Shown here: positions 56,063 through 63,040 of the stretch, piece by piece
How the letters are laid out: each line of letters starts with the position of its first letter
How positions within the stretch are numbered: the stretch's first letter is position 1
NCBI GenBank assembly: GCA_000004695.1
Contig: CM000150.2
Location: 4,832,001 to 4,896,000 of the forward strand
Source of the DNA: Dictyostelium discoideum
Taxonomy: Eukaryota
Length of the DNA stretch: 64,000 nucleotides
Direction: 5' to 3'
Made by a program: the position numbers and the translations under genes
The notes under the pieces: model-generated
Databases searched by the model: none
Seen by the model: only the letters and a program-made list of their open reading frames with translations
What the model was told of the DNA's origin: nothing

Positions 56063-56742
56063 GCTACTCACTTAATTACAACTAAACAAGGGTATCTAGA
56101 AAAAACACAAAAAGTAACACAAGCAATATCACTAGGTATACCTATTTTAGTAAAAGAGTATGTTCATTATTGTGCTTTTAAAAAGGAATTACTCGGAGTA
56201 GAAAATTATTTGGTTTCTTCTTTAATTTTGGTATGTTTATTTTTTTTATTCTCATATTTATTATTTTCCTTTTTAATTTCTGACTTTTTTTTTTTATTTT
56301 TTTTATACCTTAATATAGAATCCCACATCTACAACATTAAATAGTTCTCAAGATTTAATTGAAAAACCAAATGAAGAGGAACCTCAAAATGGAACAATCA
56401 ATGAACAACCAATAGCAATGACAATCGATAATACTTTGGAAAGTAATAAACCAATAGAAACAATACAGCCTTCATCTTTAGAAAAACAGGAACCAAAAGA
56501 AACTGAATTACAAACACAACAACAGCCACAAACAGAGTTAAAATCAGAATTAGAACCACAACAACTTCAATTAATACAAGAAAAAGATAAAAATATAAAC
56601 AATTTATCAATTGATTCAAATCATATGGATACATCGAAAATAGAAGCAGGCAATAATATTTCAAATCAAACCCAATCGAATATTATAAGCTCTGTAGTTC
56701 AAACAATTGAACCTCTTAAAGAATGTAACAAGATCGATCTTG

Positions 56743-56835
<93 letters not shown>

Positions 56836-57926
56836 GTAGTAGTAATAATAAAAATAAAAATAATGTAGATGAAGCACAAGAAGGATTAAATATAAATAGT
56901 GTAATGGATGTTCATTTAACATCATCGACATCATCAACTTTATCATCATCAGATAATCAAGACAATGAATTATTGAGAGATGAGGGTACAACACCTAAAT
57001 CTAAAAAGAAATTCTCACAAAAAAAGAATCATCTTTTAAATTTAAAGAAAAGTTATCAAGATCCAGAGATTATAGCACACTCAAGACCAAGAAAAAGTAG
57101 TGGTGGTGTTTCTTTGGTAGAGGCACTATCAGATCATGCAAATTATATTTCAAATTTAGATGGTTTTAAATATTATGCCAGAGCTAATAAGAGTAGTCTA
57201 AATAGTAATGCTACTACATCAGGAGGCAATAATAGATCAATCAAATTAAACGAGTATAAATATGATGATGAAGAGGAAGATGAAGAAGATGAGGATGAAG
57301 AAGATGAAGAAGAGGATGAAGAAGAGGAGGAGGAGGAGGAGGAGGAAGAAGAAGATTATGATGATGAGGATTTAAATGATGAGGAAAGTGATGAAGATGA
57401 TTTTGATAGTGATGAAGATGTTTCAAGATTTATTAAAGGAAAGTTATTACAAAAACAACAGAAAATCTATAAAGATTTAGAAAGATTCGAGCATTCTCGT
57501 CAGCAGCAACATCATCACCACCAATCAAGTCAAGTCAATAGTTCAAAACCAAGATCTAGATCACATTCTAGAGATTATATCGAAAGTGAAATTGCCAAAT
57601 ATCTCCTCAATAATAGTGAGAAACAAATACCTTTATCACCAACAAAGAAGAGATCATTATCAAATCAATTTCACCAAGATGGAGGTAATAATACCACCGA
57701 TGGTAACTTGTTTAATAATTTTAGTACCAATGGAGGAGGTAATAGAACAAATATTGATGATTCCATAAAACAATCAATATTGGAATCACCATCATCATCA
57801 TCACTCAAATCTAGTAAAAGTAAAAAATCAAAAAAACCATTCTTACCTCCACTTTCGACATTAGTTCATATCTTAGTTACTTTTATCATTCTTAGTGCAT
57901 TTTTTATGTCTTTACCCTCAAATTAA
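55451..57926 (+). CDS. BRCT-domain protein of about 756 aa with Q/N-rich and D/E-rich tracts and a C-terminal hydrophobic (possibly tail-anchor) segment. Exons are join(55451..55945, 56063..56230, 56319..57926).
   Basis: BRCT hallmarks span exons 1-2: FENLGFVIDITI...LVKIIKKNGGKSCYSCTK | ATHLITTKQGYLEKTQKVTQAISLGIPILVKEYVHYCAF. A poly-N run follows, then an acidic block (DDEEEDEEDEDEEDEEEDEEEEEEEEEEEEDYDDEDLNDEESDEDDFDSDED). The C-terminus ...KKPFLPPLSTLVHILVTFIILSAFFMSLPSN* is strongly hydrophobic. Donors are AAG|GTATGT and TTG|GTATGT, both phase 0. Confidence 0.7.
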
Positions 57927-58351: not shown

Positions 58352-59216
58352 ATGGGAAACCAACAAAGTTCTGGAATTGAAGGATCAAAACCAATTTCAG
58401 CATTTTATTATAATAATATTAGTACAGTGATATCAAGGGATGGATTTTATTTTTTTAATAATCAAAGTCAAAGATTTGAATCATCTAAAAGACCAATTAC
58501 ATTTGTAATTTATGATGAAGAAGGAAATCAATTTATAACAGGAGAAGATGATTTTTTCATTCGTTTATATAATGAAGATGGTACATATATTAAACAATTA
58601 CCAAATTTACAATCAAATATAACAACAGATGTAATTGCAATTTCACATCAAGATTTTATTCGTGTTTTATTTCCAATTAGAAATATTGATTTCCATCAAA
58701 TAAATTCAAATTCAAATAATAGTAATACAATGTTATTATCAGGTGGTATGGATGGAACAATTAGATTATGGCAAGTTGAAACAGGTAGTTTATTAGCAGT
58801 ATATAATCAAGATATTTCAAAAGTAACCATGAATGGTATTATCGATACAACATCAGCAGGAATTACAGCATTAACATTTGATCCAACCAATTTATTAGTT
58901 ATATCTGGTACATCCGATGGTATAGTTCGTAAACATTCACTAAGAGAACGTGTTATAATGGGTACTTTTATTGGTCATAGTAGAGGTGCAATTTTAAATT
59001 TATTACTCACAAAACATGGTCATCTTTTATCATCTTCAATGGATAGAACTATAAGACTTTGGGATATTGATTCAGGTAAACAAATAACTGGTTGTAAATA
59101 TTTCTCTCAAACTATGGTTTATGATCATCATAGAGATATTGTTTTCGCTGCTTCTGATACTGGTACAATAGCTGTAATTCAAATTGTTAAAGATTTAAAT
59201 AATTCTTGTATGTATA

Positions 59217-59257
<41 letters not shown>

Positions 59258-59611
59258 TTTATATAATTGATTAACTTTTTTTTATTTATTTTTTATTCAT
59301 AGGGTCATTAAAAAAGATAAAAGTATTAGATTTAAAGAAACCAGCGATTTTACATTTACATTATAATACATATGTTGATCAATTAACGGTTACATCAATT
59401 GAAACTAATATTGCAAGTGTTCAAAATGCAACAGGTATACCATTTGAATCTGTTGAAAATGATTATAAAAAACAAGTTAATCTTGTTCAAGGATTATGGG
59501 AAACAACAAATAATAGATTAACAATTACACCTTCACAATCTAATAATTCTTTAGCAAAATCACAATCAATTAATAATCAATTAAATCAATCAACAACATC
59601 AACAATCAATC

Positions 59612-59677
<66 letters not shown>

Positions 59678-59741
59678 ATGAAGATGAGTTTGAAGATGAA
59701 TATATTGATAACCAAATAAAAGAAAAACAACAACAACTACT

Positions 59742-59775
<34 letters not shown>

Positions 59776-62529
59776 AATGAAGAAGAACCAATTGAAGATT
59801 ATATATTTTCAAATGAAATTTCAAGTGAATTAACAGAAGAATTTATTCAATTATCAATTGAAGAATTAAAAAATATAAAATTAACAAATATGATTGAAAA
59901 TACATTAAATAGTGATCAAATGATATTAATTGATAGGTTAAAACAATTGGAATTTTTAGGTAATGAATTATTTGAACATCAAAGTTCACAAGAGGAAAAA
60001 GAATATAATGAAGCAAGAAAGTTAAAATATGTAAATGGTTTAACACAATTCCAAGATTCAATTGAGGAAATGTCAGAAGATTATGTATCTTGTATGAGAA
60101 TGTTAATTAAAACCAATGATGCTGATATTGTATTAGATACTGATAATTGCAAAGATATTAAAATCAGATCATTGGAACAAAAGAGAATGGAAATTCTTGA
60201 ACGTCATCGTTTAGAGTTGGAACAATTCCAAGGGGAAGTTGATAGGGAGCTATCGGTATTCTCTGATCAACAATTACCATTGATAACAAAGAAAGTTGCA
60301 AATGAATGTTTTGAAAATAAAAAGAGATTATTAAATTCTCAAGAATCAATTGAAAAATCAATTCAAACTTATCTATCAAATACTTTTCCAGCTGTTAATC
60401 AACGTTATCATTTGGGTCCATTAATTTCAGAGAATTCAACAACAGTTTTTCGTGCTTTCGATTGTAAATCTTTAATTCCAGTTGCTGTTAAAGTTTTACC
60501 ACCTGTAGCTTTAAATATACCTGTACATGAAAATTTAACAAAAGTTTATCAAGTTTGTCAAACACCACAATCAATCTATGTCATTATGGAACCTTCAACT
60601 ACAAGTTTAAAACCATTAGTTGAATCAATGGATCAACATCAATTACCAATTTCAATGGTAATTTCAATTATGAAACAACTTTTACAATGTCTTTTATTTT
60701 TACATTCATCAAGTTTAGTTTATCGTGATTTAAATCCATCAAGAGTTTTATTAACTACCACCACCACCACTGCTAATGATGATGTTGATTGTGAACTACA
60801 ACAACAACAACAACAACAAGTAAAAGTTAAATTAACTCATTTTGGTATAATGAGATCATTACAAGGTAATGTTGATTCAGAACCAGCTGAAGATGGTATG
60901 ATTTATGGTTCACCAGAAATTTTTGGTAGAGTAATTAATACTGAATCCGATATTTGGTCTTTGGGTGTAATTTTCATTTATCTTTTACAAACAAAACAAG
61001 AAAGAACAAAACCATTATTCCATGGCCACAATAATAAATCTGTAATTGAAAGTATTGTTAAAATCGTTGGTAGACCTTTCCAAAAGGATATTGATAGAAT
61101 GATTGCAAATGGTAATATGACATCTGATGCAATTCAATTACTTCAATATGCAGCAAGTTTACCTGTACCATTTGAAGATTCTATTGATAATTTAAGATCA
61201 CATTGTTCATTAGCTTCTGATTCCGCTTTGGATCTTTTAACTCAAATGTTACAATTTGTACCACATAAAAGAATTTCAATTGAACAAGCTTTATCTCATC
61301 CATTCATTTTAAATTTACCAAAACAACAACAACAACAACAACAACAAAAACAACAACAACAACAGCAACAACAACAACAACAAGAAATAATCCCTAAAGA
61401 TGATTCCTTAACAGATATTAGTAGTAATAAACAAGAAACTGTAGTTTATGATGCTAATATTCAAATTAATCAAGAGGATTTAATTTCTAAAATAAAAGAG
61501 AATGAAATTCAAAAAGAAATTGATTTCAAAGAAAATCAAATTAATGAAGAAATTAAAGAAGATGTTAAGGAGGAGATAGAAGAAGATATTAAAGAAGAAA
61601 TCAAAGAAGAAATCAAAGAAGAAAGTAAAGAGGTTCAAGAAGAGGCTAAAGAGGAGATTAAAGAAGAAATCCAAATAGAGACACAAGAAGTTAAAGAGGA
61701 GATTAAAGAAGAAGTCCAAGTGGAGATTAAGGAGGAGAAGATTAAAGAGGAGATTAAAGAGGAGATTAAAGAAGAAACTCAGGAGGAGATTAAAGAAGAA
61801 AATAAAGATGAAATCCAAGAGACAATTAAAGAAGAGGTTCAAGTAGAGATTAAAGAGGAAATAAAAGAAGAAACTCAAGAGGAGATAAAAGAAATTCTAA
61901 ATGAAGTCCAAGTTAAAGAAGAGGTCAAAGAAGAAATCCAAGAAGAAGTTAGTCAAGAAACCCTAAGTGAAATCCAAGAAGAAGTTAAAGAAGAAATCCA
62001 AGAAGATATAAAAGAAGAAGTTAAAGAAGAAATCCAAAATGAAATCAGAGAAGAAATCCAAAATGAAATCAGAGAAGAAATCAAAGAAGAAATCAAAAAA
62101 GTTAGTGAAGAAATTCAAAATGAAATCCAAGAAGAAGTTAAAGAAGAAATCCAAAATGAAATCCAAGAAGAACAACAAGATACAATTAAGGAAGAAATCC
62201 AAGAAATTAAACAAGAAATAATTTCCGAAAGAGATACAAATCAAGAAGGAGAAATTAGTGATACAATTGTTTCAGATTCGAAAGAAGCAGACTCTATAAT
62301 AGAAGGACCAGTTACTTTAGAAAGGGATAATAAAAATGCAAGTGATCATGATGATGAGCAACAATTTGTAGAGGAAGAAATTGAAGTAGAGGAAGAAATT
62401 GAAGTAGAGGAGGAGATTGAAGTAGAAGAAGAAATTGAAGTGGAGGAGGAGATTGAAGTAGAAGAGGAGATTGAAGTAGAAGAAGAAATTCAAGTAGAAG
62501 ATGATACCGATAAATCAAATGATTTTTAA
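58352..62529 (+). CDS. N-myristoylatable WD40-repeat protein of about 1360 aa with a central Q-rich linker, a degenerate protein-kinase (pseudokinase) domain and a C-terminal acidic EIKEE/EEEIEV repeat region. Exons are join(58352..59207, 59303..62529).
   Basis: The start is MGNQQSSG, with Gly2 in an N-myristoylation context. WD repeats are present (GGMDGTIRLWQV, GTSDGIVRKH, SSMDRTIRLWDI, ASDTGTIAV). The phase-1 donor is T|GTATGT and the acceptor TTCATAG|GG. The kinase-like region has the beta3 Lys (PVAVKVL), but the catalytic loop is YRDLNPSR (HRDLKPEN expected) and the activation-loop motif is HFG instead of DFG. SPE and DIWSLGVIF are present. Confidence 0.8.
62371..62500. repeat. Seven tandem 18-bp repeats (gaggaagaaattgaagta, peptide EEEIEV) at the 3' end of the WD40-pseudokinase gene. 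They are preceded by about 700 bp of degenerate EIKEE-type repeats (61540..62230).
   Basis: Direct observation. The units alternate only in synonymous g/a positions. Confidence 0.9.
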
Positions 62530-62628: not shown

Positions 62629-63040
62629 TTATTTCTTTACAGTTGGTGTCGAACCTATATAATTAAAATCATCATCAAAACAATCATTTAAAATTGATTC
62701 ATGGTCTTGTCCAGATTTACTTTTTGCCCTCACTAAAAATAAATATTAAATTAGTTTTTAAAAAAAAAAATAATAATAATAATAATAATAAAAATAATAA
62801 TAACTTACATTCATGAAAATCATTCATTGATTTTAATTCTTCTTCACCTTGTTTAAGAAGGTTTTCAATTGTTTCGAAATCTTTTTGGTGAATTTCTTTA
62901 TTTGATCTAAATTTTAATTTAATATATGATTCCATCATCATTTGATTCTGATATTTTGGACACCTTTTTGCTGAATATAAACATCTTTTATATAAATCTA
63001 AAACAAGTCTTTTATTTTCTTTTATAATTTTAGATGACAT
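62629..63040 (-). CDS. LYR-motif (Complex1_LYR/LYRM family) small protein, 111 aa. Exons are join(62809..63040, 62629..62732).
   Basis: MSSKIIKENKRLVLDLYKRCLYSAKRCPKYQNQMMMESYIKLKFRSNKEIHQKDFETIENLLKQGEEELKSMNDFHE | LRAKSKSGQDHESILNDCFDDDFNYIGSTPTVKK*. The L-Y-K...F pattern resembles LYRM4/ISD11-like proteins. The donor is T|GTAAGT. Confidence 0.6.

Follow-up and report, generated by a model that had tools for sequence, protein, structure and literature searches.

VPS15 (PIK3R4) is a myristoylated scaffold of the class III PI3K complexes, built from a pseudokinase, HEAT repeats and a WD40 module (bioRxiv 10.1101/2023.09.28.559894). It associates with the membrane, and its pseudokinase regulates its partner allosterically (bioRxiv 10.1101/2023.09.28.559894). 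The protein encoded by the Dictyostelium discoideum gene DDB_G0270444 has a similar parts list, as both proteins combine a WD40 propeller and a helical region with a degenerate kinase fold, and both have an N-myristoylation signal. However, the order is reversed, running from the myristoylation signal through WD40 and helix to kinase in DDB_G0270444 and through kinase and HEAT to WD40 in VPS15. The kinase domain of DDB_G0270444 is CMGC/CDK-like and its gatekeeper aligns to Met, in contrast to the VPS15-specific Arg. It is also missing the αC helix, whereas in VPS15 the αC residues line the myristate pocket (bioRxiv 10.1101/2023.09.28.559894). We rejected DDB_G0270444 as a VPS15 orthologue on its module order and gatekeeper, and Dictyostelium has a separate VPS15-family kinase.

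Within the kinase domain the closest solved structures are those of CDK2, CDK5, Pho85, ERK2 and PRP4, with sequence identities of 22-30%. The similarity to the CDK and MAPK enzymes extends over the general fold and the C-lobe, and includes the Arg of subdomain XI and a terminal ...ALxHPF; a VGRP motif opposite LGTP after subdomain IX may mark a CMGC-type region. In contrast to these enzymes, DDB_G0270444 lacks the PSTAIRE/αC segment, the GxGxxG motif, the DFG Asp, the catalytic-loop Lys and Asn and the T-loop Thr/Tyr, and carries a fused helical region of ~170 aa and a WD40 propeller upstream. A bona fide CDK was rejected, as the PSTAIRE-type helix is deleted and there is no conserved T-loop Thr.

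CASK and WNK are precedents for active kinases that lack canonical elements. The WNG kinases of Toxoplasma have no Gly-loop, yet are presented as kinases in the summary of one report (PMC6442604). DDB_G0270444 resembles WNG1, CASK and WNK in that the ATP site is incomplete while other parts of it are conserved. The difference is that one element is missing in each of these proteins, compared with four, a whole helix included, in the DDB_G0270444 family.

Identity and gene structure of DDB_G0270444

We analysed a window of 64,000 nucleotides from D. discoideum contig CM000150.2. The interval 58352-62529 is the gene DDB_G0270444, kinome ID DDB0230126, named as a 'probable inactive protein kinase'. 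This identity was settled through the supplement of the kinome paper (Goldberg et al. 2006, PLoS Genet 2:e38), as the N-terminal ~390 aa are identical to the Table S2 sequence of DDB0230126, splice junction included. The same table classifies the protein as CMGC-Unique, 'partial kd' and inactive ('i'), gives its motifs as VAVK, YRDLNPSR and HFG and remarks that it 'lacks G52, E91 and D184', while Figure S1 of that paper gives subdomain III as 'ALNIPV'. In this catalogue DDB0230126 was regarded as unique to Dictyostelium. The gene, its domain content, its motifs and its predicted inactivity have therefore been public since 2006, and the call of an inactive kinase made in a preliminary description of this DNA was already known. 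Our literature searches found no paper on the gene beyond the kinome catalogue.

The interval is not a single open reading frame. Two exons and a 95-nt intron give a protein of 1360 aa, and the WD40 exon continues into the remainder only once the intron is spliced out. Without splicing, the first open reading frame ends at 59266, at a stop inside the intron, and the second starts only at 59890. The spliced junction, ...DLNNSWSLKKIK..., agrees with the published DDB0230126 protein. The reading frame begins at 58352, at the MGNQQSSG start that the preliminary description had identified. The modules follow in the order MGNQQS N-terminus, WD40 propeller, Q-rich linker, long helical region, kinase fold and acidic low-complexity tail:

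58352..59207, + strand: exon 1, encoding aa 1-285 and base 1 of codon 286; N-terminus and most of the WD40 propeller
59208..59302, + strand: intron of 95 nt (GTATGT...ATAG) with an A34 run (TRF A-run 59222-59255)
59303..62529, + strand: exon 2, encoding aa 286-1360; stop codon at 62527-62529
58352..58372, + strand: MGNQQSS, predicted N-myristoylation-type N-terminus (Gly2, Ser6), with an in-frame TAA two codons upstream
58379..59451, + strand: WD40 beta-propeller region, about aa 10-335, spanning the intron; Pfam and PDB matches
59452..59886, + strand: Q-rich, low-complexity linker with CAA/AAC arrays, aa 336-480; TRF arrays at 59591-59676 and 59726-59775
59887..60396, + strand: conserved helical region, aa 481-650, ~170 aa; helices in the AF2 model; contains R-H-x-x-E-L

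The N-myristoylation pattern (PROSITE PS00008) calls for Met1-Gly2, a small or uncharged residue at position 3 and Ser, Thr or a small residue at position 6. MGNQQSS fits this pattern, making it a predicted site on sequence grounds. A start of the form MG[NQGA]xx[SGA] is present in 14 of the 19 family members with complete N-termini, the D. discoideum protein counted; in the Cavenderia protein model the MG-type motif sits internally. Among membrane signals the protein shows the myristate motif alone, with no adjacent Cys and no polybasic patch.

The WD40 repeats noted previously were borne out by Pfam, with a score of 63.8 bits (cutoff 27) and three significant repeats, and many other beta-propeller families also matched. 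In the PDB the region matched the propellers of DAW1, WDR5 and PkwA, and it is 42-50% identical across the five dictyostelid orthologues compared. By eye, aa 10-335 divide into about seven segments that resemble blades, which would suggest the number of blades. The linker that follows is species-specific and gapped in all the orthologues aligned. Between the linker and the kinase lies the helical region, which was absent from the preliminary description. Its family motif R-H-x-x-E-L retains H587 in 26/29 and E590 in 27/29 members. The better of our two AF2 models has one continuous helix of 71 residues here, at aa 576-646.

A CDK-like fold with a remodelled active site

Pfam identified the kinase fold (Pkinase, PF00069) at aa 694-954 with 101 bits (cutoff 31.7) and an E value of 9.6e-29. 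The N-lobe is weak in Pfam because the match covers only profile positions 57-263 of the family. We placed the motifs using residue-level alignments to ERK2 and D. discoideum Cdk1, and obtained the following features:

60397..61317, + strand: CMGC/CDK-like pseudokinase domain, aa 651-957
60490..60492, + strand: codon of K682, the retained β3 Lys (VAVK), aligned to Cdk1 VALK; Lys in 27/29 members
60493..60540, + strand: short β3-β4 connector in place of αC, aa 683-698, VLPPVALNIPVHENLT; Cdk1 alignment and AF2
60721..60744, + strand: catalytic loop YRDLNPSR, aa 759-766; H to Y, K168 to N and N171 to R, with Arg and Asp kept
60754..60819, + strand: low-complexity insert (T6...Q7) within the kinase domain, aa 770-791; TRF AAC array at 60794-60819
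60838..60846, + strand: HFG in place of DFG, aa 798-800; ERK2 and Cdk1 alignments

In these alignments YRDLNPSR falls opposite HRDLKPxN, HFG opposite DFG, VAVK opposite VALK, SPE opposite APE and DIWSLG opposite DMWSVG, so that the earlier placement of the catalytic loop, HFG, VAVK, SPE and subdomain IX was correct. The gatekeeper aligns to Met, with YVIME opposite YLVFE of Cdk1. The closest neighbours in both sequence and structure are CMGC kinases, and in the pairwise alignment IVGRPFQKDI lies opposite VLGTPDDSIW of Cdk1 and is followed by a comparably long insert. The short activation segment has two conserved Glu residues, and neither a Thr nor another phospho-acceptor is conserved in it.

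The alignment to Cdk1 also revealed a gap of about 13 residues opposite the PSTALRE segment, showing that the αC (PSTAIRE) region is missing. We rest this loss on the explicit alignment, as the spacing between the Lys and HRD motifs measured by regular expression in unrelated kinases was too noisy. A first AF2 model, from an alignment of four sequences, was poor (pLDDT 54.9) and was not used in the fold comparison; the model used in its place, from 20 sequences, has a pLDDT of 88.3 and a pTM of 0.77 and contains no helix between β3 and β4. With αC gone, the retained β3 Lys has no Glu91 partner. The Gly-loop is degenerate, with LGPLISENSTTV opposite LGEGTYGKV of Cdk1, and GxGxxG is absent from all 29 family members. 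The T6...Q7 insert is not found in the orthologues and forms the blocks of lowest pLDDT in the model (50-69). The degenerate Gly-loop, the αC deletion and this insert are additions to the preliminary description.

Among the features of catalytic competence the β3 Lys is thus present, and the Gly-loop, the αC Glu91, the catalytic-loop Lys and Asn and the DFG Asp are absent. The core of the preliminary description, a WD40 protein with a kinase fold that has lost its metal-binding Asn and DFG Asp and is predicted to be inactive, agrees with both Pfam and the alignments. We predict that the kinase fold is catalytically inactive.

A family across distantly related protists

We identified about 28 relatives that contain both the helix and the pseudokinase, from Dictyostelia, other Amoebozoa, Heterolobosea, Jakobida and environmental eukaryotes. 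An MG start and a WD40 region are also present in most of those that are full-length. In a profile search 68 proteins passed E<=1e-30, and some 25 of these matched the helical region as well. An exact look-up of the 1360-aa sequence gave no match. In a homologue search with a 959-aa query, generic WD40 proteins dominated the matches; only three true orthologues surfaced, and neither the D. discoideum protein nor any close Dictyostelium species was among the results. A word-indexed search using the family profile of 20 sequences brought up a single fungal MAPK, which is unrelated, and no family members. More than 15 full-length proteins, predicted from genomes and transcriptomes that are independent of each other, have the same fused layout. 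The domain order previously described as unusual is a layout conserved in a protist family that is widespread. In the jakobid Andalucia the orthologue carries the transferred annotation 'putative inactive protein kinase DDB_G0270444'. On these homology matches the family is found beyond Dictyostelium, across Amoebozoa and in Discoba, and the 'CMGC-Unique' label is outdated.

The pseudokinase is the best conserved part, with 33-55% identity among the family compared with 13-36% for the helix. The degenerate motifs are conserved in the orthologues, which answers a check proposed in the preliminary description. Among the 29 members His occupies the DFG Asp position in 28/29 and the Gly of this motif is invariant (29/29); the β3 Lys and the catalytic-loop Arg are each kept in 27/29, and the APE Glu and the subdomain XI Arg in 29/29. 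The catalytic Asp position is Asp or Glu in 25/29 (Glu in five) and is replaced in four, and about ten non-amoebozoan members keep the catalytic-loop Asn. The D. discoideum protein has all four modules together with the motifs H-[FLVIM]-G-[IVL]-M-[KR] and, after β3, K-x-[LF]-P. The near-invariant His and the retention of the β3 Lys and Arg-Asp represent conservation beyond a simple loss of function, and could reflect ligand binding or unusual chemistry.

Possible functions of the DDB_G0270444 protein

The best reading of these observations, and one we consider probable, is that the DDB_G0270444 protein is a membrane-tethered, predicted non-catalytic scaffold. N-myristoylation would place the protein on the membrane, where the propeller and a rigid, phosphorylation-independent pseudokinase would recruit partners or regulate them allosterically. 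The 71-residue helix may replace the missing αC or serve in dimerisation. Three parts would lie outside the core mechanism as lineage-specific low-complexity expansions, namely the Q-rich linker, the T/Q insert and the acidic EEIK/EEEIEV tail. Expansions of this kind are common in the D. discoideum genome.

A more far-reaching interpretation, which we put forward only tentatively, is that DDB_G0270444 is the model-organism member of an ancient, protist-wide and apparently undescribed family of N-myristoylatable WD40-helix-CDK-like pseudokinases, in which the remodelled pocket would be under strong purifying selection for a new, non-phosphotransfer function rather than a product of mere decay. 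We found no published account of the wider WD40-helix-pseudokinase family in our literature search. The family traits here are the deletion of the cyclin-binding αC helix and the almost invariable replacement of the DFG Asp by His. The new function might be ligand or nucleotide sensing, or the use of a helix in cis to replace the cyclin/αC unit.

A related but rather unlikely possibility is that the pseudokinase binds nucleotide without hydrolysis and acts as a switch, as in VPS15 with GTP or STRADα with ATP. Nucleotide occupancy, possibly with burial of the N-myristate, would then control anchor exposure and partner binding. The β3 Lys and a hydrophobic gatekeeper are kept, and VPS15 itself joins a pseudokinase that binds nucleotide to helical and WD40 modules and is myristoylated, with its myristate buried in the kinase N-lobe (bioRxiv 10.1101/2023.09.28.559894). 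However, phosphate binding would be weak in DDB_G0270444, because there is no Gly-loop, no αC Glu and neither metal ligand. The myristoylatable end is also ~650 residues from the kinase N-lobe, beyond the propeller and the disordered linker.

The scaffold reading counts the C-terminal tail among the lineage-specific expansions, and this part was considered separately. Residues 960-1360 are 33% Glu with a net charge of -110, and contain the following tracts:

61324..61386, + strand: second poly-Q tract, aa 960-980; TRF 61322-61383
61483..62232, + strand: degenerate EEIK/EEIQ zone of 12-bp period, aa 1013-1262, net charge -63
62371..62496, + strand: 18-bp array of six EEEIEV and one EEEIQV; TRF 7.3 copies, 87% matches

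The preliminary description was right about an acidic repeat tail, but not about seven perfect EEEIEV units, as one of the seven reads EEEIQV and the units have a mean DNA identity of 87%, with 2/21 pairs identical. The recent repeat expansion that it proposed is not supported, since the 18-bp units are imperfect and differ at synonymous sites. Could the tail instead be a selected module, such as a polyanionic tether, a helical spacer or a decoy, and not a neutral expansion? Among the variable sites of the seven 18-bp units four are synonymous and only one is non-synonymous, counts too small for a test of selection, and the Cavenderia fasciculata orthologue has an acidic tail as well, rich in E, K, I and V with EIQVEE and DEIEV strings. 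It is the only other acidic tail among the dictyostelid orthologues compared. The tail is absent from the dictyostelid orthologues P0001 and Tieghemostelium and is replaced by S/T/P-rich sequence in Acytostelium and Synstelium, and TRF reports the 12-bp array (period 12, 53 copies) as only 65% self-similar. This variability between lineages speaks against the functional polyanionic tether suggested earlier, and we regard a selected tail as doubtful.

We consider it improbable that the protein is an atypical but active enzyme, in which phosphotransfer or some other reaction that depends on nucleotide proceeds with metal coordination that is unusual or absent. The His, Lys, Arg and Asp/Glu positions have been kept over very deep divergence, the Met gatekeeper (I-M-E compared with V-F-E in Cdk1) is compatible with adenine binding, the catalytic-loop Asn is still present in ten members, and other kinases once called dead later proved to be active. 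Against this, the Gly-loop, αC with its Glu, the catalytic-loop Lys/Asn and the DFG Asp are gone or changed together, and the catalytic Asp itself varies, with replacement in four members and Glu in five. No active protein kinase is known to lack the αC helix entirely. Finally, although the separate unspliced reading frames might suggest mis-joined WD40 and kinase-like genes, or a decaying pseudogene, this is effectively refuted by the canonical 95-nt intron that restores one frame, open for 1360 codons, and by the recurrence of the fused layout in full-length proteins whose most conserved region is the pseudokinase.

This analysis adds to the 2006 annotation only the recurrence of the protein design in many protists that are distantly related. 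Social amoebae, jakobids and heteroloboseans share the helix-pseudokinase core and its active-site pattern, and most full-length members retain the whole architecture. As a genetically tractable organism, D. discoideum provides an entry point to this uncharacterised, deeply conserved pseudokinase family, which would be a natural test of the role of a CDK-like fold without its αC helix.

Gene structure and prior annotation

The gene DDB_G0270444 sits in strongly AT-rich DNA (GC 0.16-0.31) and its interval contains two ORFs rather than one, 58352-59266 and 59890-62529, in a different frame relation. The preliminary description of a myristoylatable WD40-pseudokinase fusion was essentially correct, but it had the repeat details wrong and did not mention the intron that brings these frames together in a spliced CDS of 4083 nt (1360 codons). 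MGNQQSSG is the N-terminus, as an in-frame TAA lies two codons 5' of the ATG.

Features of the gene and its neighbours
56418-57926, +: upstream neighbour, a low-complexity protein of 502 aa that contains one long run each of Asn and of D/E, its hydrophobic C-terminal segment resembling a tail anchor; no Pfam match above cutoff (best DUF5893, E 0.006)
58352-59207 and 59303-62529, +: coding segments
59208-59302, +: canonical 95-nt intron, GTATGT...ATAG
59222-59255: uninterrupted A34 run within the intron; the unspliced frame reads poly-Lys, then a stop
60208-60231 (aa 586-593): helix motif R-H-x-x-E-L-x-x-[LF], lying ~65 residues N-terminal to the kinase domain
60754-60819: T6...Q7 low-complexity insert between the catalytic loop and HFG, in no orthologue
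62717-63040, -: downstream neighbour, a LYR-motif protein matching Complex1_LYR (PF05347, E 7.5e-16); the ORF end (LLLFLLLLLL...) resembles read-through into an intron or UTR

The gene and its predicted inactivity are already known: the preliminary interpretation agrees with a published, curated prediction. Table S2 of Goldberg et al. 2006 (PMC1420674) places DDB0230126 in group CMGC, family CMGC-Unique, as a 'partial kd' with predicted activity 'i', motifs VAVK / YRDLNPSR / HFG and the comment 'lacks G52, E91 and D184'. Our spliced model is identical to the sequence printed there through the exon junction (...DLNNSWSLKKIKVLDLKK...). Figure S1 of the same paper gives subdomain III in a shortened form, 'ALNIPV', and its text reports that a 'CMGC-unique' kinase carries WD40 repeats. 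The current gene ID came from the annotation of the Andalucia godoyi orthologue, 'putative inactive protein kinase DDB_G0270444'; a search of the accessible paper library for DDB0230126 and DDB_G0270444 found no paper naming either.

The ATP site of the pseudokinase

Pfam identified three significant WD40 repeats, together with many beta-propeller families, at aa ~40-290, and Pkinase at aa 694-954 (101 bits, cutoff 31.7). The Pkinase match is limited to profile positions 57-263, and the N-lobe is therefore aberrant. The best phmmer matches among PDB sequences were ERK2 and CDK1, with '...LVYRDLNPSRVLL' opposite 'VLHRDLKPSNLLL' and 'KLTHFGIMR' opposite 'KILDFGLAR'. An explicit alignment of the kinase domains of four dictyostelids with D. 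discoideum Cdk1 agrees, so the motifs had been assigned correctly from the outset. The domain is CMGC, nearest to CDK/MAPK and outside every named family. Two further defects had been overlooked: the Gly-loop is degenerate, and 13 residues are absent exactly opposite the PSTALRE (alphaC) of Cdk1.

Motifs in the DDB_G0270444 protein and in Cdk1
Gly-loop: LGPLISENSTTV vs LGEGTYGKV
beta3 Lys: VAVK vs VALK
Catalytic loop: YRDLNPSR vs HRDLKPQN
DFG: HFG vs DFG
APE: SPE vs APE
Subdomain IX: DIWSLG vs DMWSVG

AF2 prediction from four sequences was poor (pLDDT 54.9); from a 20-sequence family alignment, aa 575-957 reached pLDDT 88.3 and pTM 0.77, the T6/Q7 insert being the sole low-confidence stretch. 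The model has a single continuous helix of 71 residues (aa 576-646), followed by beta1 to beta3 (beta3, aa 677-684) and a normal C-lobe. Only coil separates beta3 from beta4 (aa 685-699), and alphaC is therefore absent. We hypothesise that the long helix may occupy the alphaC or cyclin site. Its R-H-x-x-E-L-x-x-[LF] motif is found family-wide (His 26/29, Glu 27/29) and could provide a contact compensating for the missing alphaC.

Family distribution and conservation

The orthologue search suggested in the preliminary description yielded three real orthologues, P0001 (a EukProt dictyostelid), Tieghemostelium lacteum and Acytostelium subglobosum, the remaining matches being generic WD40 proteins. 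All three keep the MGNxxS start and VA[VI]K[VI]LPP, carry degenerate catalytic loops (YRDLSPSS, YRDLLPSK, KREITPSS) and read HLG at the DFG position. When a profile of the helix and pseudokinase region was searched exhaustively, 68 proteins reached E<=1e-30, of which ~25 matched over the helical region as well. Cluster look-ups placed relatives in Dictyostelia (Synstelium, Cavenderia), other Amoebozoa (Phalansterium, Protostelium, Mastigella, Pelomyxa), Heterolobosea (Pharyngomonas) and Jakobida (Andalucia), alongside a single MMETSP transcript and several contigs from metagenomes; animal, fungal or plant names did not occur among the 20 look-ups. Homologue searches of the large protein collection did not return the D. 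discoideum protein or close Dictyostelium species, and the word-indexed search with the family profile missed members of its own alignment, so absence there is not evidence of absence. The Cavenderia fasciculata model P0122 (XP_004354213.1) has 37 extra residues ahead of a conserved MGNNQS start, probably owing to a mis-called start. Relatives P0139 and P0127 appear misnamed, as 'flagellar motility protein MotE' (JGI fragment) and 'male germ cell-associated kinase'.

Conservation across 29 aligned family sequences, DDB_G0270444 included
MG[NQGA]xx[SGA] start: 14/19 complete N-termini
GxGxxG: 0/29
beta3 Lys: 27/29
Lys-to-beta4 connector: 12-17 residues in all
Catalytic-loop Arg: 27/29
Catalytic-loop Asp: 20/29; Glu in 5
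Catalytic-loop Asn: kept in 10, every one outside Amoebozoa
His for DFG Asp: 28/29; Gln once
G of H-x-G: 29/29
Met of G-[IVL]-M-[KR]: 28/29
APE Glu, subdomain IX Asp, subdomain XI Arg: each 29/29

The short activation segment follows the consensus H-x-G-[IVL]-M-[KR]-x-L-x-G-x-E-x-x-E-[ND]-G-x-x-[YF]-x-[AP]-P-E; across the aligned sequences no phospho-acceptor is conserved in it. Identity to the D. discoideum protein is highest in the pseudokinase (33-55%), followed by WD40 (18-50%), helix (13-36%) and linker (10-24%). In the orthologue alignment the Q-rich linker and kinase insert are found in D. discoideum only.

Four parts make up the tail (aa 960-1360): another poly-Q tract; an EEIK/EEIQ zone of 250 aa, whose net charge is -63 and whose 53 copies of a 12-bp period show only 65% matches; a spacer of 46 aa; and an 18-bp array. 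This array had been described as seven perfect EEEIEV units of recent expansion. It consists of six EEEIEV and one EEEIQV; since the units average 87% DNA identity, with 2/21 pairs identical and four synonymous variable sites to one non-synonymous, neither perfection nor recent expansion is supported. The tail is absent in P0001 and Tieghemostelium, S/T/P-rich in Acytostelium and Synstelium, and acidic and E/K/I/V-rich in Cavenderia. It is lineage-variable low-complexity sequence.

Possible function

The analysis establishes how the protein is built, that four canonical elements of the ATP site are lost, and that the remodelled domain is under strong purifying selection. We infer that the protein would act as a scaffold held by a myristoyl tether, its propeller and a pseudokinase of fixed conformation binding partners. 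The nearest functional analogue would be VPS15, which combines N-myristoylation, a pseudokinase that binds nucleotide, and helical and WD40 modules, and which regulates VPS34 allosterically (bioRxiv 10.1101/2023.09.28.559894). Membership of VPS15 itself was rejected for the D. discoideum protein: its modules run in the reverse order, its kinase resembles CMGC members and its gatekeeper is Met, whereas that of VPS15 is Arg. Given the near-invariant His and the retained Lys, the protein could instead be an enzyme of atypical kind or a switch operated by nucleotide, both less probable than the scaffold; kinases without a Gly-loop have been reported, for example WNG1 (PMC6442604). A family widespread among protists, with an alphaC-less, His-for-Asp pocket, would probably be an addition to the 2006 annotation.
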